A DNA stretch of 64,000 nucleotides from an uncultured Rhodospirillaceae bacterium (GTDB taxonomy: Bacteria > Pseudomonadota > Alphaproteobacteria > UBA7887). The position numbers and the translations under genes were made by a program. This document shows positions 6,576-14,838 of the stretch, piece after piece. The notes beneath the pieces were generated by a model that was not told the DNA's origin, made no database searches, and worked only from the letters and a program-made list of their open reading frames with translations. Location of the stretch: the NCBI GenBank assembly GCA_964408735.1, contig CAYPAX010000002.1:10921-74920 (forward strand). Reading direction: 5' to 3'. The stretch's first letter is position 1, and each line of letters begins with the position of its first letter.

Positions 6576-9500
6576 GTGCGCGCGGTGGCTGAGGACCAGA
6601 GCACGAGACGCTTGGCGGCGATACTGGCGGCGGATGTCGTCGGCTATACCCGCCTCATGCGCGATGACGAGCAGGCCACCATCGCCGCGCTCGAAGCCTG
6701 CCGCGCCATCTTCGCCGACGCCATCGCCACCCATGGCGGGCGTGTGGTGGACATGGCGGGCGATTCCGTGCTCGCTGTCTTCGAGACCGCCGGCGGCGCC
6801 GTCGAGGGCGCCCTTGCCATCCAGCAGCGGCTGGCGGCCCGCGAGGAGCCCGAAGGGCGCCGCATGCGCTACCGCATCGGCGTCAACTCCGGCGATATCG
6901 TCGAGAAGGCCGACGGCACCGTCTATGGCGACGGCGTCAACGTTGCCGCCCGCCTCGAAGGCCTGGCCGAGCCGGGCGCGGTCTGCGTCTCCGGCTCGGT
7001 CTACGATTCGGTCGAAGCCCATTTGGACGCCAGATTCGCCTATCTCGGCAAGCAGACGGTCAAGAACGTCGACAAGCCCGTGCGCGCCTACCGGGTCTTG
7101 GAGCCTGGTGCCGAAGCGCCCAAGGCGCCGCGCAGGCGCTATGCGATTATCGCCGCCGCGGCGGTGGTCCTCATCGCCGCCGGCCTCGGCGTGCGCTGGC
7201 TGACCTACGTGCCGCCATACTCGGACATGGTCACTGTCACCGGCGAATTTACCAACGACCCGGTGCTGGCAGCACCCACGGGCCCGGCCATCGCCGTGCT
7301 GCCGTTCGACGATCTCTCCGAGGACACCGGCCAGGGCTTCTTCGCCGACGGCCTCACCGAGGACATCATCACCGGGCTGTCGCGCTTCAGCAATCTGCGC
7401 GTCATCGCCCGCCACTCGACCTTCCAATACAAGGGCCAGGCAGTCGATGTGCGTGAGGTCGGCGAGGCGCTCGGCGTGCGCTACGTGCTCGAAGGCAGCG
7501 TGCGGCGGGCGGGCGAGTCCCTGCGCGTGACCGCCCAGCTTCTCGATGCCCGCGACGGCACGCACCTGTGGGCGGAGAACTACGCCCGCGATCTGAGCAC
7601 CGCCGACATCTTCGCCATCCAGGACAGCATCATGGAGCGCATCGTCGGCACGCTCGGCAGCAGCGTCGGCGTCATCAGCCGTGCCCTACTGGAGGAGAGC
7701 GCGGCCCGCTACACCGACAATCTTGCCGCCTATGACTGCGTGCTGCGCGCCTATGCCTATTACGACCTGGCGACCGCGGACGAGCACCTGGCGGTGCGCA
7801 CCTGCCTGGAAGAGGCGGTGGCGCAGGACCCCTCCTATGCCGAGGCTTGGGGCTGGCTCGCCGGCATGTATCAGGACGAATACAAGTTCGCCTTCAACCC
7901 ACGCGCGGAAGCGGACGATCCGCTGGCGAGAGCCATCGCGGCGTCGCGGAACGCCATCAACGCCGATGCGACCAGCCAGGTCGGTTACGAGACCCTGGCC
8001 GGCGGGCATTATTTTTCGGGCGATATCGAACAATTCCGCGCCGCCGCCGAGCGCGCTCTGTCGCTCAACCCCAACAACTCCAATACCCTCGCCTGGATGG
8101 GCTTTCTCACGGCCTATTCCGGCGCCTGGAACAGAGGCATCGCCCTGCTCGACAAGGCGGTCAACCTCAATCCCAATCATCCCAGCTGGTATCACGTTGC
8201 CTACGCCCTGCATCACTATCACAAGGGCAATTACGAGGCGGCGCTGTTGGCGGCCAAGCGCTACAACCTGCCGGGTTTCTACTGGCACCACCTGAATCTG
8301 TCGATGATCTACGCGCAGCTCGGCCGGCTCGACGAGGCACGGGCTGCGGTTGCCGAGCTTACCAAGCTCTATCCCGGTTACGCCGACGTCGCCCGTGCCG
8401 ACCTGGAGAAATGGTTCAAGGACGAAGCGCTGGTCACGGCCATGCTGGAGGGCCTGGAGAAGGCCGGGCTGTTCGACGAGCCCGAAGTCACGCGTCCGGC
8501 CATTGCCGTGCTGCCCTTTGCGAACCTTGGCGGCGACCCGGCCCAGGCCTATTTCGCCGACGGCATCACGGAAGAGCTGACCGAGGCGCTGGCGCGCTTC
8601 CAGGGGCTGTCTGTCACGGCGCGCACCCCGACGCTGCAATACAAGGAGACGACAGCGGACGTGCGCGAGATCGGCCAGGCGCTGGGCGTCGGTTATGTGT
8701 TGGAGGGCAGCGTGCGCCGCGACGCCGACACGGTCGGCATAACGGCGCAGCTCATCGACACAGCCGACGGCGCACATCTGTGGAGCGAGACCTACGAGCG
8801 CGACCTCATTGTCGGCGGCATTTTCGCGGTGCAGGAGGATATTGCGGATCGGGTGACGGTGGCGCTTACCGGTCGCCACGGGGTCCTTGTGGAACGAGAC
8901 TTGGCAGAAGCCCGTCAGTTGGCCCCGGAGAGCCTCGAGCACTATGACTGTGTTCTGTTGGCATCGGTCTATTGGGAGCACGCGGAACAGAAAACCTATC
9001 CGGCATTGCTGGATTGTCTCGAGCACGCGGTGGAATCGAATCCAGACTACGTAGACGCATGGATAGCCTTATCGGAGTTCTATGCCAACGACTACGAGCT
9101 TTCGATTGGCGCAAGGCCGGATCCTGCCTCACTAGCACTCGCCGCAGCGGAAAGGGCGGTCGAACTCGCGCCGAGACGTCACGACGCCCATGGGGTGAAA
9201 TCGAACGCGCTTTTCTTTTTGCACCAGCTCGATGCCTTTGAGAAGGCAGGCGATGTCGCGGTTGAGCTTAATCCGAGTGATCCCGAAATCCTGGTCCTGA
9301 CCGGGCTCCATTTGGTCCTGGTGGGCAAATGGGAGAAGGGTATCACCTTGGTGCATCGGGCGATGGAGCTTCAGCCCGATCATCCGACTTGGTGGTATTT
9401 CCCGACGATTTGGGAGCATTACCACAATGGTCGTTACGAGGCCGCGCTTGCTGACGCCCTCAAGATCGATCTCGAGGATTACCTGTGGACCCACACCGCG

Positions 9501-10922
9501 CGCGCGATCGCCTATGCGCGTCTCGGCCGCATGGCCGAAGCGCGGGCGGCGGCGGCGCGCGCAGCCGAGGTCTATCCCGGCTTCTCGATCGAGGCCCAGC
9601 GTGCCGAGCTGCAAAAATATAATTTCGAAGAGTCACTCATCGCCGACACTCTCGGCGCCCTCCGTCTCGCCGGGGTGCCGGAGACGCCGCCGGCGCCGGC
9701 GCGGCCGGTGATTGTCGTGCTGCCGTTCGACAATATGGGCGGCGATGGGAGCCAGGACTTTTTCGCCGACGGCATTACCGAGGATATCACCACGCGGCTG
9801 TCGCGCTTTGCTGACCTTGCCGTGATCGCGCGCAACTCGGCCTTCCAGTACAAGGGCCAGGCCGTGGATGTGGAGGCCGTGGCGGCCGAGCTTGGCGCCG
9901 ACTATGTGGTGGAGGGAAGCGTGCGGCGCTCGCAGGACCGCGTGCGCGTCACCGCCCAGCTCCTCGAAGCCGGCGCCGCCACCCACCTCTGGGCCGAGAC
10001 CTACGACCGCGACCTGACGGCCGGCGACGTCTTCGACATCCAGGACGAGATCACCGACTCCATCGTCGGCGTCATAGCCGGTGTCCACGGTGTGATTTCC
10101 CGCTCCGGTGCAGCCGATGCCCGTCGGCGCCCCGAAAGCCTCGACACCTATGACTGTTTGTTGCTCGCCTATGCTTATGACCGTCAAGTGACCGCCGAGG
10201 CGTTCCACGCCGGAAAACAGTGCCTCGACGCAGTGCTGGCGCGCGAGCCGGATTATGTCGATGCTCTGTCCGCATTTACCTATCTCGCGGCCGACGGCTC
10301 CACCATGGGCTGGGGTGGACTGACGGACGACGAGCGTGAGGCCCTATTGGCCGAGGCCCTTGCGACGGGCCACCGTGCCATCACCTTGGCACCGGATGAC
10401 GCCAAGAGCCAGTGGACTCTCGCTTATGCCAAATTCGTCGCCGGCGACGTGCCCGGCTTCCGGGCTCACGCCGAGCAGGCCATGACGCTCAACCGGAACG
10501 ATGCGGACGTTAAGGGCTATGCCGGATTGTTGCTGGCTTTCGCTGGCGACTACGATCGGGGCCTTGAGCTGCTCGAAGAAGCTTTCGCCCTCAACCCGCA
10601 TCATCCCCAATGGTGGCAATTTGGTGTGGCGACCGCGCATTGGGCCGATGGCCGCTACGAGGAAGCCCTGGCCGCCGTCCGCAAAGTGGATCAACCGGAC
10701 AGTTATTGGACGCACATATGGCGTGTCTTGGCTTTCACCGGCGTCGGCGACATGGACTCTGCTCGTGCGGCGGCCGCCGATCTGGAGCGCGTCTATCCCG
10801 GCTTTACCATCGCTGCCTATCGCGATGAGGTCGCCTATTGGCAGCTGAAGCCGGATCTTGTTGATAAGGCCATCGCCGCCCTACGCAAGGCCGGCCTGCC
10901 AGAGGGCGGCGACAGCGACTAG
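6576..10922 (+). CDS. Class III adenylate/guanylate cyclase with one TM segment and three tandem TolB-N-like plus TPR-like sensor modules (1448 aa)
   Basis: GTG start. The N-terminal CHD cyclase domain reads LAAILAADVVGYTRLM...GDSVLAVF...YGDGVNVAARLE. A hydrophobic segment follows (YAIIAAAAVVLIAAGLGV). Three ~404-aa modules then each begin P[AV]I[AV]VLPF.[DN]...FADG[IL]TE[DE][IL]T..L[SA]RF and end in TPR-like helices. Confidence 0.85.
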   Translation: MRAVAEDQSTRRLAAILAADVVGYTRLMRDDEQATIAALEACRAIFADAIATHGGRVVDMAGDSVLAVFETAGGAVEGALAIQQRLAAREEPEGRRMRYRIGVNSGDIVEKADGTVYGDGVNVAARLEGLAEPGAVCVSGSVYDSVEAHLDARFAYLGKQTVKNVDKPVRAYRVLEPGAEAPKAPRRRYAIIAAAAVVLIAAGLGVRWLTYVPPYSDMVTVTGEFTNDPVLAAPTGPAIAVLPFDDLSEDTGQGFFADGLTEDIITGLSRFSNLRVIARHSTFQYKGQAVDVREVGEALGVRYVLEGSVRRAGESLRVTAQLLDARDGTHLWAENYARDLSTADIFAIQDSIMERIVGTLGSSVGVISRALLEESAARYTDNLAAYDCVLRAYAYYDLATADEHLAVRTCLEEAVAQDPSYAEAWGWLAGMYQDEYKFAFNPRAEADDPLARAIAASRNAINADATSQVGYETLAGGHYFSGDIEQFRAAAERALSLNPNNSNTLAWMGFLTAYSGAWNRGIALLDKAVNLNPNHPSWYHVAYALHHYHKGNYEAALLAAKRYNLPGFYWHHLNLSMIYAQLGRLDEARAAVAELTKLYPGYADVARADLEKWFKDEALVTAMLEGLEKAGLFDEPEVTRPAIAVLPFANLGGDPAQAYFADGITEELTEALARFQGLSVTARTPTLQYKETTADVREIGQALGVGYVLEGSVRRDADTVGITAQLIDTADGAHLWSETYERDLIVGGIFAVQEDIADRVTVALTGRHGVLVERDLAEARQLAPESLEHYDCVLLASVYWEHAEQKTYPALLDCLEHAVESNPDYVDAWIALSEFYANDYELSIGARPDPASLALAAAERAVELAPRRHDAHGVKSNALFFLHQLDAFEKAGDVAVELNPSDPEILVLTGLHLVLVGKWEKGITLVHRAMELQPDHPTWWYFPTIWEHYHNGRYEAALADALKIDLEDYLWTHTARAIAYARLGRMAEARAAAARAAEVYPGFSIEAQRAELQKYNFEESLIADTLGALRLAGVPETPPAPARPVIVVLPFDNMGGDGSQDFFADGITEDITTRLSRFADLAVIARNSAFQYKGQAVDVEAVAAELGADYVVEGSVRRSQDRVRVTAQLLEAGAATHLWAETYDRDLTAGDVFDIQDEITDSIVGVIAGVHGVISRSGAADARRRPESLDTYDCLLLAYAYDRQVTAEAFHAGKQCLDAVLAREPDYVDALSAFTYLAADGSTMGWGGLTDDEREALLAEALATGHRAITLAPDDAKSQWTLAYAKFVAGDVPGFRAHAEQAMTLNRNDADVKGYAGLLLAFAGDYDRGLELLEEAFALNPHHPQWWQFGVATAHWADGRYEEALAAVRKVDQPDSYWTHIWRVLAFTGVGDMDSARAAAADLERVYPGFTIAAYRDEVAYWQLKPDLVDKAIAALRKAGLPEGGDSD
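7284..10919 (+). repeat. Intragenic tandem triplication: three ~1.21-kb modules (7284-8495, 8496-9704, 9705-10919) encoding residues 237-640, 641-1043 and 1044-1448
   Basis: Module boundaries were placed by hand at the recurring PAIAVLPF/PVIVVLPF motif. The modules are of equal length. Similarity is recognisable at DNA level and strong at protein level. Confidence 0.7.
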
Positions 10923-11472: not shown

Positions 11473-12462
11473 ATGCCCCGTAACAAGCCGCTCGTCGTGG
11501 TCACGCGCAAGCTCCCCGAGGTCATCGAGACGCGGATGATGGAGCTGTTCGACACCAAGCTCAATCACGACGACACGCCGATGGACCGCGACGCCCTGCA
11601 GGCCGCGATGGCCGAGGCCGACGTGCTGGTGCCTACCGTAACAGATCGTATCGATGCCGGAATGATCGCCCAGGCGGGCGAGCGCCTCAAGCTGATCGCC
11701 AGTTTCGGCGCCGGTGTCGACCACATCGATGTCGCCAGCGCCCACGCCCGCGGCATCACCGTTACCAACACCCCCGGCGTGCTTACCGAGGATACCGCCG
11801 ACATGACCATGGCGCTGATCCTCTCGGTGCCGCGGCGCCTGGCCGAAGGCGAGCGCCTGATGCGATCGGGGAACTGGGAGGGCTGGGGGCCGACCTCCAT
11901 GCTCGGGCGGCGCATCTGGGGCAAGCGCTTGGGCATCATCGGCATGGGCCGCATCGGCACGGCCGTGGCCCGGCGTGCCCGCGGCTTCGGCGTATCGATC
12001 CATTATCACAACCGCCGCCGGGTGCCGGACTCCCTCGAAGCCGAGCTCGAGGCGACCTATTGGGAGAGCCTCGATCAGATGCTGGCGCGCATGGACATCA
12101 TCTCGGTCAATTGCCCGCATACTCCGGCCACCTACCATCTGCTCTCGGCGCGCCGCCTCGGGCAGTTGCAGCCGCACGCCTATATCGTCAACACCTCGCG
12201 CGGCGAGGTCATCGACGAGGCGGCACTAACGCGCATGCTGCGCGAGGGCAAGCTGGCAGGCGCCGGGCTCGATGTCTTCGAGCACGAGCCGGCCGTCAAT
12301 CCCAAGCTCTTGGAACTCGAAAGCGTCGTGCTGCTGCCCCACATGGGCTCGGCGACCCTCGAAGGGCGCACCGATTCGGGCGAAAAGGTGATCGTCAACA
12401 TCAAGACCTTCGTCGATGGTCACGCGCCGCCCGACCGCGTGCTGGCGACGGCCACGGTTTAG
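11473..12462 (+). CDS. D-isomer-specific 2-hydroxyacid dehydrogenase (glyoxylate/hydroxypyruvate reductase-like)
   Basis: 329 aa. NAD-binding GxGxxG (GIIGMGRIGTAVARRA) and the catalytic-region family motifs. Confidence 0.85.
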   Translation: MPRNKPLVVVTRKLPEVIETRMMELFDTKLNHDDTPMDRDALQAAMAEADVLVPTVTDRIDAGMIAQAGERLKLIASFGAGVDHIDVASAHARGITVTNTPGVLTEDTADMTMALILSVPRRLAEGERLMRSGNWEGWGPTSMLGRRIWGKRLGIIGMGRIGTAVARRARGFGVSIHYHNRRRVPDSLEAELEATYWESLDQMLARMDIISVNCPHTPATYHLLSARRLGQLQPHAYIVNTSRGEVIDEAALTRMLREGKLAGAGLDVFEHEPAVNPKLLELESVVLLPHMGSATLEGRTDSGEKVIVNIKTFVDGHAPPDRVLATATV

Positions 12463-12724
12463 AGCCTTATGTGGTTAGGTGGAATCGGTTTGATGGCCCA
12501 AGGTGGCCTTTCGGGCAGGAGCGGCGCGCTGGGCGATGCGGGGCATCGTTCAAGCGTAGCGACGCATCCGAAAAGCCTCATTGGGCCACCGCAGGCCGGC
12601 CTCAGCGACGCCCTGGCGGCGTTGCGCGTCTTGCCCGATGTCCCCGCATCGCGCGGCGACGCGCGCCTAGCCAGGACGGCGCTGAGACCGGTCAAACCGG
12701 TTCTACCTAATCACATAAGGCTCT
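12461..12724. mobile_element. MITE-like ~264-bp element bounded by 33-bp imperfect terminal inverted repeats
   Basis: Left repeat AGAGCCTTATGTGGTTAGGTGGAATCGGTTTGA (12461-12493). The reverse complement of the right repeat (12692-12724) is AGAGCCTTATGTGATTAGGTAGAACCGGTTTGA, a 30/33 match. The element exactly fills the gap between the dehydrogenase stop and the next gene's start. Confidence 0.5.
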
Positions 12725-12729
12725 AGCTC

Positions 12730-13626
12730 ATGAAAATCCTGAGACTTGCCGCCGGCCTCGCCTTGCTGGCAACGTCGGCCCTTGCCGACGGCCCGACGTC
12801 CGCCTGGCAGGCCAAGACCGCGACCTTGGAAGCTGTTCCCGATGCCATGAACCCGGCCTGTCGGCCCGAGGCCGAAGCCTGGCGGGCCCTGGTGGCGGAG
12901 ATCCTGGCCGCAGCCGATATGGCGCTGGTCGAGGATGCGGGCCTGCGTATCGACCTCGACGGGCTCGCCATGCCCGGGCCCCAGGAAGGGCTCTGCCATG
13001 TCGATATGAACTTCGCCATCGCATTGTCGCCCAATGCGGCGCCGGCGCCCGACACCCTGCCCGACCACGCCGGTCGCGTGCATGCCTGCCCGCGCGCCAT
13101 CACCCAGATCAGCCAAGAGCAGGCCACCGAGTTCTGGCGCGAGATGACGCGCCGCTGCCTCGCCGACTACCTGCAGGCGCGCCAGCTCAACGCCGGCGCG
13201 GCGAGTGCCGCCGAGCTCGGCAAGGACGGCAAGATCGCCTATCTGATGACGCTCAGCGGCATCGCCGTCGAGCTGCGCAACGGCCGCAACAAGATGCTGC
13301 TGGCGCTTCAGGACCGCCTGCGCCAGTTGGCGCCCAGTGTCGGCTCCGACGATGCCTCCGAGATCGAGGCGGCACTGGCGGCGCAGATCGATGACGCCTT
13401 GCCGAGTTTCTTCGAGACCTTGCGCCCTATCTATGACGCCCGCTTCACGGAGCCCGAGCTTGACGCCCTGATCGCCTTCTTCTCCAGCCCCGTCGGGCGC
13501 ACCATGATCCGCAGCGAGGCCGAGATCCGCAGCGAGATCATGTCCGCCTCGGCCGGCTGGTCGATGCAGACCATGCAGGCCGCCGTCGACACCCTGGAGC
13601 GCCTGGTCGCAGAGAAGGGGCTCTAA
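12730..13626 (+). CDS. Hypothetical periplasmic protein (signal peptide; possibly DUF2059-like)
   Basis: 298 aa. N-terminal reads MKILRLAAGLALLATSALA. It is Ala-rich and no catalytic motif was recognised. Confidence 0.5.
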   Translation: MKILRLAAGLALLATSALADGPTSAWQAKTATLEAVPDAMNPACRPEAEAWRALVAEILAAADMALVEDAGLRIDLDGLAMPGPQEGLCHVDMNFAIALSPNAAPAPDTLPDHAGRVHACPRAITQISQEQATEFWREMTRRCLADYLQARQLNAGAASAAELGKDGKIAYLMTLSGIAVELRNGRNKMLLALQDRLRQLAPSVGSDDASEIEAALAAQIDDALPSFFETLRPIYDARFTEPELDALIAFFSSPVGRTMIRSEAEIRSEIMSASAGWSMQTMQAAVDTLERLVAEKGL

Positions 13627-14045
13627 ACGAACACCACGCTGCCTTCGGCGCGGGCGTCGTTGAGGAAGGTAACGAGGCCGCCGAACTCGATGCCGAGGTC
13701 GTCGCGCAGGGCATCCTGCGCCATGTCGATGGCGGTCAGCCCCATGGTGCAGACCAGGAAGCGCACCCCCAGCGCGTGACAGGACTCGAGCAGCTCCGCG
13801 AAGCCGACGACATTGCGCGCTTGCAGGGTGGCGTCGCTTGCTGCGGCATCGCCGGCCAGGCCGTGCCAGCCGTCGTCCTTGGCGAGCGCACGGCTCGCCT
13901 CCATGGTGAAGAAGAGCGTCGCGGGGATGTCGATCGCGGCCGCGGCCGCGGCCATCGCCAGGGCGTAATGTACCTTGGCGAACTCACCCGAGAAGACGAC
14001 CAGCGACAGCTTCGCCGGGCGCGCGCCTTGGTCAGCCGGCGGCAT
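13623..14045 (-). CDS. DsrE/DsrF-like (TusD-like sulfur relay) family protein
   Basis: Conserved Cys context FLVCTMGL, about 140 aa from the ATG at 14045. The track ORF extends to 14090 and would overlap the upstream ThiF gene by 58 bp. Confidence 0.5.
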   Translation of the reverse strand: MPPADQGARPAKLSLVVFSGEFAKVHYALAMAAAAAAIDIPATLFFTMEASRALAKDDGWHGLAGDAAASDATLQARNVVGFAELLESCHALGVRFLVCTMGLTAIDMAQDALRDDLGIEFGGLVTFLNDARAEGSVVFV

Positions 14046-14838
14046 GGGCCGAGAGGTCGTGGATGGTCGCCTGGGCGCCGCATAAGTCACAAGCCGGGTC
14101 GGTGCGCACCTTGACCTTGCGGAAGGTGGTATTCAACGCGTCGAAGATCAGCAGGCTGCCCGACATGCTGTCGCCGATGCCCAGCAACTCCTTGATCACC
14201 TCGACCGCTTGTAGGGAACCCAGCGTGCCGGCCAGCGCGCCGAGCACGCCGCCCTCGGCGCAGCTCGGCACCAGCCCCGGCGGCGGCGGTGCCGGGAAGA
14301 TGCAGCGATAGCAGGGATTGTCGCCGCCGAGATGGGACTTGAACGTGCTGAGCTGGCCTTCGAAACGCAGGATCGCGGCGGAGACCAGGGTCTTGCCGGC
14401 GAGCCTGGCGGCGTCGTTGACGAGAAAGCGCGTCGGGAAATTGTCGCTGCCGTCGACCACCACATCATAGCCGGCGAACAGATCGAGGGCGTTGTCCGCC
14501 ACCAACCGCGTCTGGTGCGGCACCAGCCGCACCTCGGGATTGATGCGCTCGACGCTGGCTGCCGCACTCTCCACCTTGGCCACGCCCACACGGTCGCTGT
14601 CGTGCAGCACCTGGCGTTGCAGGTTCGACAGCGCCACCACGTCGTCGTCGACCACGCCGATGGTGCCGACGCCGGCCGCCGCGAGATAGAGGATCAGCGG
14701 CGAGCCGAGGCCGCCGGCGCCGATCACCAGCACGCGCGATTCCATCAGGCGTGCCTGACCGGTACCGCCGACCTCCGGCAGAATGATGTGTCGGGCGTAG
14801 CGCTCGACCTGCTCGTCGCTGAATTCCATACCGTCCAT
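14032..14838 (-). CDS. ThiF/MoeB/HesA family E1-like adenylyltransferase
   Basis: Nucleotide-binding motif VLVIGAGGLGSPLILYLAAAGVGTIGVVDDD and C-terminal CxxC pairs (CYRC...CDLC). At 268 aa it has no rhodanese domain. Confidence 0.8.
   Translation of the reverse strand: MDGMEFSDEQVERYARHIILPEVGGTGQARLMESRVLVIGAGGLGSPLILYLAAAGVGTIGVVDDDVVALSNLQRQVLHDSDRVGVAKVESAAASVERINPEVRLVPHQTRLVADNALDLFAGYDVVVDGSDNFPTRFLVNDAARLAGKTLVSAAILRFEGQLSTFKSHLGGDNPCYRCIFPAPPPPGLVPSCAEGGVLGALAGTLGSLQAVEVIKELLGIGDSMSGSLLIFDALNTTFRKVKVRTDPACDLCGAQATIHDLSAHAAG

Follow-up and report, generated by a model that had tools for sequence, protein, structure and literature searches.

The window analyzed here, the whole stretch of 64,000 nucleotides from an uncultured Rhodospirillaceae bacterium, carries on its + strand a gene for a D-isomer 2-hydroxyacid dehydrogenase of the glyoxylate reductase / D-glycerate dehydrogenase type (an ORF of 329 aa at 11473-12462, assigned from PF00389 and PF02826 on the identical product and from the source names), followed by a gene for a DUF2059 protein with a signal-peptide-like N-terminus (ORF 12730-13626, + strand). 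Between the two lies a non-coding element of 262 bp (12462-12723, + strand) with termini GAGC...GCTC, whose limits we take from the comparison of copies. On each side there is a TA (12460-12461 and 12724-12725), and the same comparison identifies these as a target-site duplication, outside the element proper. Counting the TAs, two inverted arms of 34 nt (12460-12493 and 12692-12725) are complementary at 31 of 34 positions (91%), with 198 nt between them. A pattern search of the window finds these two arms only, with 0 expected by chance (100 shuffles).

The left arm starts at the TAG stop of the dehydrogenase (12460-12462) and the right arm has its last base at 12725, 4 nt 5′ of the DUF2059 start ATG (12730), so that the element takes up the intergenic space. 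The stop codon is composite. Its TA is the target TA and its G is the first base of the element, and because that base is a G, the stop is rebuilt as TAG. A preliminary description of this DNA had proposed a 264-bp MITE-like element with 33-bp terminal inverted repeats that begin at the dehydrogenase stop and fill the whole gap to 5 bp before the next ATG. The inverted repeat is confirmed at that place and now measures 34 nt, and both its beginning at the stop and its filling of the gap stand; the distance to the ATG becomes 4 nt, and the extent becomes a 262-bp core, with the outer TAs reassigned to the target. That description also suggested counting copies, looking for target-site duplications, predicting the RNA fold, and comparing the orthologous site in relatives, and named as its refutation an element that is single-copy and conserved at this site in all relatives.

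The terminal inverted repeats proper are at 12462-12493 and 12692-12723 (both annotated on the + strand). The left one keeps the terminus GAGC(C/G) and an inner block, GGAAYCGGTTTGA, on either side of a hypervariable middle of ~14 nt, and has a GAATC (a GANTC site) at 12482-12486; the right one holds a TAAGG, 9 nt 5′ of the downstream ATG. Inside the arms there are two hairpins, both described on the + strand. The left one (12494-12588; inverted repeat I4, helices 2-5) has the invariant tip CGATGC (12534-12539) / GCATCG (12543-12548), and the right one (12596-12691; inverted repeat I3, helices 7-8) has the tip CGATG (12636-12640) / GCATCG (12646-12651) and an invariant CTAGCC motif. The G+C-rich interior with nested palindromes that had been described earlier is there: the inverted repeats I2-I5 are nested within it, and the element is 65% G+C, in a window of 66%. 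The copies range from 61 to 67% G+C, and thus the A+T-richness that is typical of MITEs, although not one of their defining traits, is absent. Over their whole length, the element and its reverse complement are 69% identical, and a family profile scores the element at 261 bits on the + strand and 104 bits on the − strand.

The predicted fold of the element has a free energy of −178 kcal/mol, and z is −11.3 on either strand. The consensus fold for the family is a Y, in which the two arms form a closing stem of ~34 bp that carries two hairpins of ~95 nt each. In this fold, 93.1% of the cells are paired, and 61 of the 107 pairs have changes on both sides; none of 500 shuffles reaches as high, and slid controls give 33-38%. 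The left hairpin is 91.7-100% paired with compensatory changes at 17/35 pairs, and the right hairpin is 88-90% paired with compensatory changes at 19/36. We rejected a rod-shaped fold that pairs the left half with the right half, in which 75% (vs. 93% for the Y) is paired and the interior is mostly broken.

The three arm mismatches in the window are all G.U on the + strand, which could be taken for an RNA-strand signal, but this is not general among the copies and we do not retain it. No strand asymmetry in G.U usage is seen among the copies, and the + strand has a better ΔG than the − strand in only 4 of 10 copies. Since the transcribed strand has no consistent folding advantage, the structural conservation could be purely at the DNA level. 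An Rfam scan of the whole window gives no match at gathering thresholds, and at permissive settings it gives noise alone (8-9 bits, E about 7). There is no intrinsic terminator (a hairpin with a U-run) in 12300-12900, where GCTCATG follows the element, and the terminator role once proposed for it is not supported, there being no U-run or terminator motif. We found no promoter motif in the element either. GANTC is present in 4 of 9 copies, where it falls within the closing stem.

The element contains two mirror-image ORFs, one of 85 aa on the + strand (12469-12726, which gene callers predict in a 77-aa form from 12493) and one of 78 aa on the − strand (12459-12695), both ending in PNHIRL. Is the + strand ORF a genuine small protein gene? 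Gene callers predict it in many metagenomes, where it makes up 20 clusters on different contigs, and the frame is open in most close copies. But substitutions at codon positions 1:2:3 are 13:16:7, so that the third position is the one that varies least, and homologues are 72-86% identical as protein, below the 89-94% of the DNA. Moreover, the mirror ORF is open to the same degree on the opposite strand, the frame is interrupted in L012, a distant member, and a Pfam search finds no domain. We give practically no credence to a protein here. The codon-position ratio and the broken frame mark both ORFs as by-products of a G+C-rich palindromic sequence, much as the preliminary description had understood them, and as it also said, no transposase is encoded in the element, only these spurious ORFs.

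Scanning contigs with the exact outer-arm sequence of the window gave no match, as the arm proved to be variable, and the copies were retrieved by a second scan with a pattern taken from the interior. We find related copies, 89-94% identical in DNA, in at least 6 other gene contexts and at least 8 distinct insertion contexts in marine Rhodospirillaceae-like genomes. One copy is past the stop of a secA-like gene (L018), another between a prepilin peptidase and T2SS-E (L019), another between nirDL and nirJ (L021), and another between a response regulator and a histidine kinase in a contig from the same sample as the source contig of the window (L022). L020 carries two copies (L020a and L020b), and L012 and L016 have further ones. 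Every full-length copy has terminal inverted repeats. Five copies have a core of 262 bp, and L020b, whose arms are unrelated, has one of 263 bp. The family has distant relatives in aquatic Rhizobiaceae and on Agrobacterium and Rhizobium plasmids (PLSDB), and on these plasmids, too, the same interior is found with unrelated arms; reciprocally, arms of the same type enclose an unrelated interior of ~310 bp in L035, by which the arms behave as a transposon-end module. The interior pattern also matched L013, L014, L015, L017, and L036, by chance or in coding sequence, and these are not family members.

Outer arms are 58-68% identical between copies whose interiors are 93-96% identical, making the outer arms the least conserved part, the reverse of the usual MITE pattern. 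We tried the hypervariable arm segment as a possible guide to the target, and rejected it, because it matched its own flanks no better than those of other copies. Deletion derivatives without one hairpin occur in L022 and in Rhizobium, decayed copies in L022 (15841-16064) and in L030-L034, and in these last a single-hairpin relative stands alone.

The repeats also leave a mark on assemblies. Contigs L006-L009 terminate within the element, and L003 and L005 change to other flanks exactly past ...CTCTAG. Dehydrogenase "variants" of 408-440 aa, which would otherwise read as read-through fusions into the element, are chimeric assemblies instead.

There is a TA on both sides in 8 of the 9 complete copies, the exception being L021, which lacks one base of the left TA. 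Restricted to copies with GAGC ends, the right TA is present in 7/7 and the left TA in 6/7 (L021 again), and sites with neither TA damaged have the form Y-TA...TA-R, a target of the IS630 type. TA also flanks the copies whose termini are unrelated (GTGG..., CCAAG...). A longer duplication, of 4 bp, fails in 4 of 6 copies. The targets that we reconstruct are CTAG for L018, L020a, and L020b, TTAG for the window, L019, and L012, CTAA for L022, and ATAT for the Agrobacterium and Rhizobium copies.

The orthologous site in relatives gives an independent view. In L026-L029 the dehydrogenase is 97% identical and the order SH3 - dehydrogenase - DUF2059 - DsrE - ThiF is kept, and the site is empty, ACGGTA TAG ATC ATG, with a single TA within the TAG and the DUF2059 gene starting 3 nt past the dehydrogenase stop. 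From the window one would predict ACGGTT TAG CTC ATG before the insertion. The empty site is thus what an insertion into the stop codon that duplicates TA predicts, and the dispersed copies, the empty site, and the TA flanks together indicate that the element is mobile.

This bears directly on whether the locus could instead have a fixed, non-mobile cis-regulatory structure, or a small-RNA gene, of its own operon. The fold is extremely stable, the location is exactly between two co-directional genes, and the element is present in all 24 examined contigs with an identical dehydrogenase, all of which such a structure would explain. But the 97% lineage does without it, many unrelated loci carry it, and it has neither promoter or terminator motif nor an Rfam family. 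The empty site and the dispersed copies refute this alternative, and we regard it as extremely improbable. For the same reasons, copies being dispersed and the site being empty in relatives, the outcome that was to refute the preliminary description did not arise. Its suggested checks turned out in favor of a non-autonomous miniature mobile element: the copy count (with the pseudo-ORF clusters, and assemblies that break or switch inside the element), the TA duplication, the fold, and the empty site, all in a sequence without coding capacity. We hold it very likely that this is a non-coding 262-bp MITE inserted at the TA of the dehydrogenase stop codon. As such, it is nothing unusual among the selfish repeats of bacteria. 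Its core agrees with the size limit of <500 bp in a 2024 review, yet it is above the ~100-200 bp that a 2008 review gives for classical families (PMC10969869; PMC2229807).

What would have moved it? We looked for an autonomous IS, or a transposase whose ends match, in the window, in PLSDB, in IMG/VR, and in ~300 kb of related contigs, and found none. Both types of arm were compared by BLAST with the PLSDB plasmids, which returned nothing relevant, IMG/VR was scanned for bipartite arms, and a pattern search was run across loci. With no parent found, the TA duplication is our one ground for inferring that the element is mobilized in trans and by which family of transposase. The insertion itself went into the TA of the dehydrogenase stop codon, at a junction so tight that 3 nt separate stop and start, and the TA was duplicated. 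The enzyme would be a DDE transposase acting in trans and cutting at TA in Y-TA-R targets. Its recognition sequences are probably two conserved pieces of the arm, the GAGC at the terminus and the inner block GGAAYCGGTTTGA. An IS5/IS427-type enzyme is presumably an alternative. The best candidate, judging from the target sites, is a transposase of the IS630/Tc1-mariner type, for which a 2-bp TA duplication with a CTAG-like preference is expected, and the reconstructed targets have both. The duplication made by IS630 is of 2 bp, at CTAG (PMC2577343 Table 1), and IS630 prefers TA within that tetranucleotide (PMC2229807; PMC2577343 Table 1).

A different mode of transposition would follow if the element were of the REP/REPIN/BIME type, that is, inverted paired hairpins moved as single-stranded DNA by a RAYT (IS200/IS605-like HUH), with the TA flanks incidental. 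There are two inverted hairpin modules with conserved tips and a conserved CGTCG/CGACG adjoining them, and the relative in L030-L034 shows that one hairpin can stand alone. CGTC-tagged REPs predominate in Alphaproteobacteria, where they form head-to-head dimers and have no known transposase (PMC3733652). However, HUH transposition leaves no duplication, whereas here TA is duplicated relative to the empty site, and TA flanks 8/9 complete copies, even those with unrelated termini. Long terminal inverted repeats also do not fit, and no RAYT or Y1 transposase is present in the gene tables of the examined loci. REPs and REPINs in general have an unpaired GTAG or CGTC tag and a short palindrome with stems of 6-13 bp, and the CGTC REPs have a stem of 8-9 bp starting with A.T pairs, a 4-5 nt loop, and a CCA tail (PMC3733652). 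Here the stems are of 17-20 bp and start with G.C, and the conserved CGTCG is in an internal loop. Stem length, first pairs, and placement of CGTCG all set the element apart from the CGTC REPs, and with such stems, a TA duplication, and no RAYT in those tables, the REP-like nature offered as an option by the preliminary description is not confirmed. We find this origin very improbable.

A more subtle question is whether a MITE of this kind has in addition a function for the host. The Y interior could be a selected module, a structured RNA or a protein-binding DNA, which acts at operon junctions in processing, insulation, or coupling, and which hitch-hikes on interchangeable transposon ends. 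This would explain why the interior is better conserved than the outer arms, why it occurs with unrelated arms in L020b and on the Agrobacterium and Rhizobium plasmids, why members from Rhodospirillaceae and from Rhizobiaceae share the CGATGC/GCATCG tips and CTAGCC without variation, and why both hairpins have compensatory changes. It would also agree with 8 of the 9 copies found by DNA search being co-directional with the adjacent gene, and with 4-5 of 8-9 copies being at stop-codon or operon-junction sites (vs. ~18% expected), although these are small samples, partly ascertained through gene calls. Against it, folding energy and G.U usage have no strand asymmetry, Rfam has no match, one-hairpin derivatives and decayed copies persist, and close relatives have no element at the same site. 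On balance, we think such added function unlikely. The most specific form of it is that the Y-shaped interior of ~200 nt may be not filler but a conserved functional module, carried between Rhodospirillaceae and Rhizobiaceae on at least 3 unrelated pairs of TA-transposon ends, and kept in one orientation at operon stop-start junctions because of some action there, which may be as an mRNA processing site, as a contact between stop and start that preserves translational coupling, or by binding a host protein. That form we consider quite unlikely.

Whatever its function, the MITE is probably transcribed through within the operon, which we infer because neither a promoter motif nor a terminator motif is present in it. 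Once transcribed, its closing stem would keep the upstream stop beside the downstream start, and holding the two together would account for insertions being tolerated at operon junctions. By analogy with the Correia elements, the 34-bp duplex would also be a plausible substrate for RNase III.

Several known families are alike in part. RUP is a TA-targeting MITE that is attributed to IS630-Spn1 (PMC2229807). It shares with our element being non-coding, multi-copy, and intergenic, with terminal inverted repeats and insertion at TA with duplication, but RUP is 107 bp and A+T-rich, and for it a candidate parent whose ends match is known, while ours is 262 bp, 65% G+C, has arms of 32-34 nt, and no parent in the data searched. 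The Correia/NEMIS elements of Neisseria also duplicate TA and have long terminal inverted repeats (~24-26 bp for Correia). They often adjoin genes and are co-transcribed, their arms pair in transcripts where RNase III cleaves the arm duplex, and they have no known parent transposase (PMC2229807; PMC10969869). They differ in being 107-155 bp and A+T-rich, with IHF and promoter motifs; our element lacks a promoter motif and contains two long hairpins that are conserved, and processing by RNase III is for it an analogy only. ERIC/IRU in Enterobacteria and Yersinia have TA termini, are imperfect palindromes, and sit between genes of transcription units, where they form a long RNA hairpin, with effects on mRNA that depend on orientation (PMC2229807; PMC10969869). 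The bias in orientation that we observe is reminiscent of that dependence, but ERIC is 127 bp, has one stem-loop, and no sequence relation. Similar in size is a MITE that Geobacter uraniireducens carries, Chunjie, of 235 bp, with full-length copies and truncated derivatives as summarized in a review (PMC10969869, citing Chen et al. 2008); it belongs to a different phylum and has an unrelated sequence.

Among alphaproteobacterial repeats, RIME1 and RIME2 (the Rhizobium-specific intergenic mosaic elements) and other rhizobial repeats are also intergenic and palindromic, and for RIME the likeness is one of description. RIMEs are 108-185 bp long and are not known to duplicate TA. PLSDB searches with two family members gave no match to the Sinorhizobium meliloti megaplasmids. 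Going by the title of Osteras et al. 1995 (cited in PMC2573895), RIME was first found inside a two-component operon, and similarly the L022 copy has a response regulator on one side and a histidine kinase on the other. Finally, the CcrM-associated intergenic repeats (CIR) of Caulobacter and Brucella are alphaproteobacterial, with two long stem-loops and TA termini (PMC2229807). Unlike our element they are ~110 bp, lack terminal inverted repeats, and expose a conserved GANTC in a loop; with 262 bp, long arms, and GANTC in a minority of copies and inside a stem, ours is not a CIR. Multi-copy as it is, the family apparently has no name.

Annotations should mark the region as a repeat/MITE and discard the "hypothetical proteins" of 77-85 aa called inside it, of which public protein sets hold at least 20 clusters. 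For metagenome assembly, this is a family that breaks contigs and makes chimeric joins (L003, L005-L009) in an abundant marine alphaproteobacterial lineage. As an example of transposition, it is a clean case of stop codons being hit, and rebuilt, by a MITE that duplicates TA. Copies of the family sit in operons (secA, T2SS, nir, a two-component system) in which the downstream genes have not obviously been lost. If the biases in orientation and in junction sites hold in complete genomes, the family would be a good system in which to study how operons tolerate, or exploit, a hairpin of ~260 nt between their cistrons.

The 34-nt inverted repeat at the junction between the 2-hydroxyacid dehydrogenase gene (11473-12462, 329 aa) and the DUF2059 gene (12730-13626) has its arms at 12460-12493 and 12692-12725, with complementarity at 31/34 positions (91%). 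The TAG stop of the dehydrogenase opens the left arm, and the ATG of the DUF2059 gene comes 4 nt after the end of the right arm, which agrees with the terminal repeats around this junction in the preliminary description. A search of the 64-kb window for the arm pattern returns two matches, these arms only, with 0 expected by chance, and a family profile search finds no second family copy there. From arm to arm the stretch is 266 bp long (G+C 65%), contains nested palindromes, and is 69% identical to its own reverse complement. It is because of this near symmetry that the element carries two mirror-image ORFs ending in PNHIRL, correctly read earlier as a by-product of the inverted repeats. The folding predicted for the element is strong (z about -11 on either strand), and the earlier observation holds. 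The left arm also includes a GANTC (CcrM methylation) site, GAATC at 12482-12486, found at the same position in L018, L019, and L020, three loci carrying related copies. The site, created by a T/C difference between the arms, occurs in the left arm of 4/5 close copies; the right arm and the distant members lack it.

The pre-insertion site predicted from the window sequence is ACGGTT-TAG-CTC-ATG. In the sister lineage, whose dehydrogenase is 97% identical, contigs (one from GCA_030750165.1) with the same SH3 - dehydrogenase - DUF2059 - DsrE - ThiF order have no element, and the site reads ACGGTA-TAG-ATC-ATG, with a single TA and the genes 3 nt apart. This element-free site fits the prediction, and therefore the element is an insertion into the stop codon that duplicated its TA; the TAG is regenerated because the element begins with a G. 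In five full-length copies the core is exactly 262 bp, GAGC...GCTC. Among GAGC-ended copies, TA is present on the right in 7/7 and also on the left in 6, and with both TAs intact the insertion site is Y-TA[core]TA-R. The copy between nirDL and nirJ (L021:9993-9995) has lost one base of the left TA, and for that reason the upstream gene's stop reads TGA, the target T plus the element GA. In L022, another copy-bearing locus, the original stop reconstructs as TAA. A 4-bp target duplication is contradicted in 4/6 copies; a TA duplication fits the rest.

Some more diverged members have entirely different termini. L020b (GTGGTGCAAATC..., 263 bp) and a member on an Agrobacterium sp. MA01 plasmid (CCAAGTGTCGATG..., nearly the same length) are both TA-flanked, as is a shortened form on a Rhizobium sp. 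SSA_523 plasmid with arms as in the Agrobacterium member. In L012, a metagenome locus, a 22-nt solo left terminus (TAGAGCCCCATCGAATTTAACT, 1824-1845) directly upstream of the full element provides the TAG stop of the upstream 433-aa ORF, and may be what an earlier insertion or excision left behind. Further along the window (13623-14838, minus strand), the listed DsrE-like ORF overlaps the ThiF ORF by ~59 nt (14032-14090), only ~14 nt for the shorter DsrE ORF called in the gene table; the convergent DUF2059 and DsrE genes overlap at their stops, the two ends having 4 nt in common.

The element is multi-copy. Marine metagenome contigs were retrieved by exact look-up of the dehydrogenase protein and then aligned, and four of these dehydrogenase-bearing contigs end inside the element. 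In contig L005 (4254-4293) the right flank beyond the element differs from those of the window and of L003. Contig L003 (3988-4253; ENA ERZ23498947 scaffold_1854) keeps the window dehydrogenase together with the leftmost two-thirds of its element copy, followed by SNPs, the right arm of another copy, and then a DUF58/VWA/BatA operon. The L003 and L005 junctions reflect either genuine recombination between two copies or chimeric assembly at the repeat; such breaks and flank switches are the signature of a repeat. Motif scans found one complete and one partial copy in a Rhodospirillaceae MAG among species-representative genomes (L018, L016), and the more diverged copy L012 in metagenomes. Using as protein query the spurious ORF that gene callers place in the element, we obtained 20 clusters on different contigs, and fetching some of them gave further copies: L019 has one between a prepilin peptidase and T2SS-E, L020 downstream of an ABC-transporter operon, L021 between nirDL and nirJ, and L022, which shares its sample with the window's source contig, has one separating a response regulator from its histidine kinase. 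Paralogues of a window ORF (6576-10922, 1448 aa) with an adenylate/guanylate cyclase domain and three TolB_N/TPR module repeats lie near the copies in L019 and L021.

The element is not a gene, and is non-autonomous. Across five close copies, substitutions in the called ORF fall at codon positions 1:2:3 as 13:16:7, the third being the least variable; the mirror ORF on the opposite strand is equally open, the frame is broken in L012, and homologues have lower protein identity (72-86%) than DNA identity (89-94%). No transposase appears beside any copy of the element type in the gene tables of the related loci. With its dispersed copies, TA duplication, and empty site, the element is what had been suggested, a non-autonomous miniature mobile element encoding no transposase.

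Copies with interiors 93-96% identical have 58-68% identity over the outer 19 nt of their arms, whereas the window and L021 show the opposite (arms 95%, interior 86%). The interior is also found with unrelated arms, and the ~316-bp TA-flanked element at L035:2081-2396 (IMGVR_UViG_3300031840_000950; arm type GAGCGGGATTTGT...GGAAGCGGTTTGATGG) has GAGC-N15-GGAAGCGGTTTGATGG arms enclosing an unrelated, less G+C-rich interior. Arms and interior thus behave as separable modules. The L035 element represents a sister MITE family with ends in common, and the arm looks like a two-part structure in which a free spacer separates the conserved terminus from a conserved inner block. Shorter forms include a 171-bp derivative without the left hairpin (L022:9990-10164, between the response regulator and histidine kinase), a ~167-bp single-hairpin form starting right after a TAA stop on a Rhizobium plasmid (L011:1446-1612), and a decayed single-hairpin relative abutting the DsrE stop near the orthologous dehydrogenase of the 82%-identity relatives (L030-L034:5022-5161); a decayed copy lies in a divergent intergenic region (L022:15841-16064). 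The 82%-identity relatives have no DUF2059 gene, and their dehydrogenase is flanked by IS110-type and IS4/IS5-type transposase genes.

An alignment of eight family members with six arm types supports a predicted Y-shaped fold conserved across the family, a closing stem of ~34 bp plus two long hairpins. The Y fold has 93.1% of cells paired and both-side changes in 61/107 pairs, 36 of these inside the hairpins, a covariation reached by 0/500 shuffles; slid controls have 33-38% of cells paired. A rod fold, pairing the left half with the right half, reaches 75%, with the interior mostly broken. The hairpin tips CGATGC/GCATCG do not vary, nor does a CTAGCC in the right hairpin. The signal is alike on both strands, with the transcribed one folding better in only 4/10 copies, and therefore the three G.U pairs in the window stem are not a general RNA signature. 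No Rfam family matched the window element, and no promoter- or terminator-like motif was found at it, which disfavors the terminator once suggested.

YTAR is rare (64 sites in the 64 kb, 5 at gene stops and 23 intergenic). Of 8-9 characterised insertions, a small sample, 4-5 fall within a stop codon where neighbouring genes run in the same direction at close spacing, against an expected share of about 18% (P about 0.01-0.04), and 8/9 copies recovered by DNA search point the same way as the adjacent gene. A guide-like role for the variable arm segment was rejected: a copy's own flanks matched no better than those of other copies. A DDE transposase of the IS630/Tc1-mariner type would mobilise the element in trans, the alternative presumably being an IS5/IS427-type enzyme; no parent IS with matching ends was found in the window, related contigs, PLSDB plasmids, or IMG/VR. 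IS630 is tabulated as duplicating 2 bp at CTAG (PMC2577343, Table 1), and RUP is a TA-targeting MITE attributed to IS630-Spn1 (PMC2229807).

The element has the defining features of a MITE (small size, inverted repeats, target duplication, non-coding sequence, dispersed copies, a stable stem-loop), but at 65% G+C not the typical A+T richness. It lacks the defining features of REP/REPIN, CIR, and intrinsic terminators, and the REP part of the label "RIME/REP-like" is not supported; in functional terms it is similar to RUP, Correia, ERIC, and Chunjie. Apparently, this is a new, unnamed family of a well-known kind. Transcription would read through the element as part of the operon, and the closing stem would bring the stop of the upstream gene close to the start of the downstream one, which may be why insertions at junctions are tolerated. 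By analogy with Correia elements, RNase III may cleave the 34-bp duplex (PMC2229807, PMC10969869). A host-level role for the conserved interior has a modest probability.
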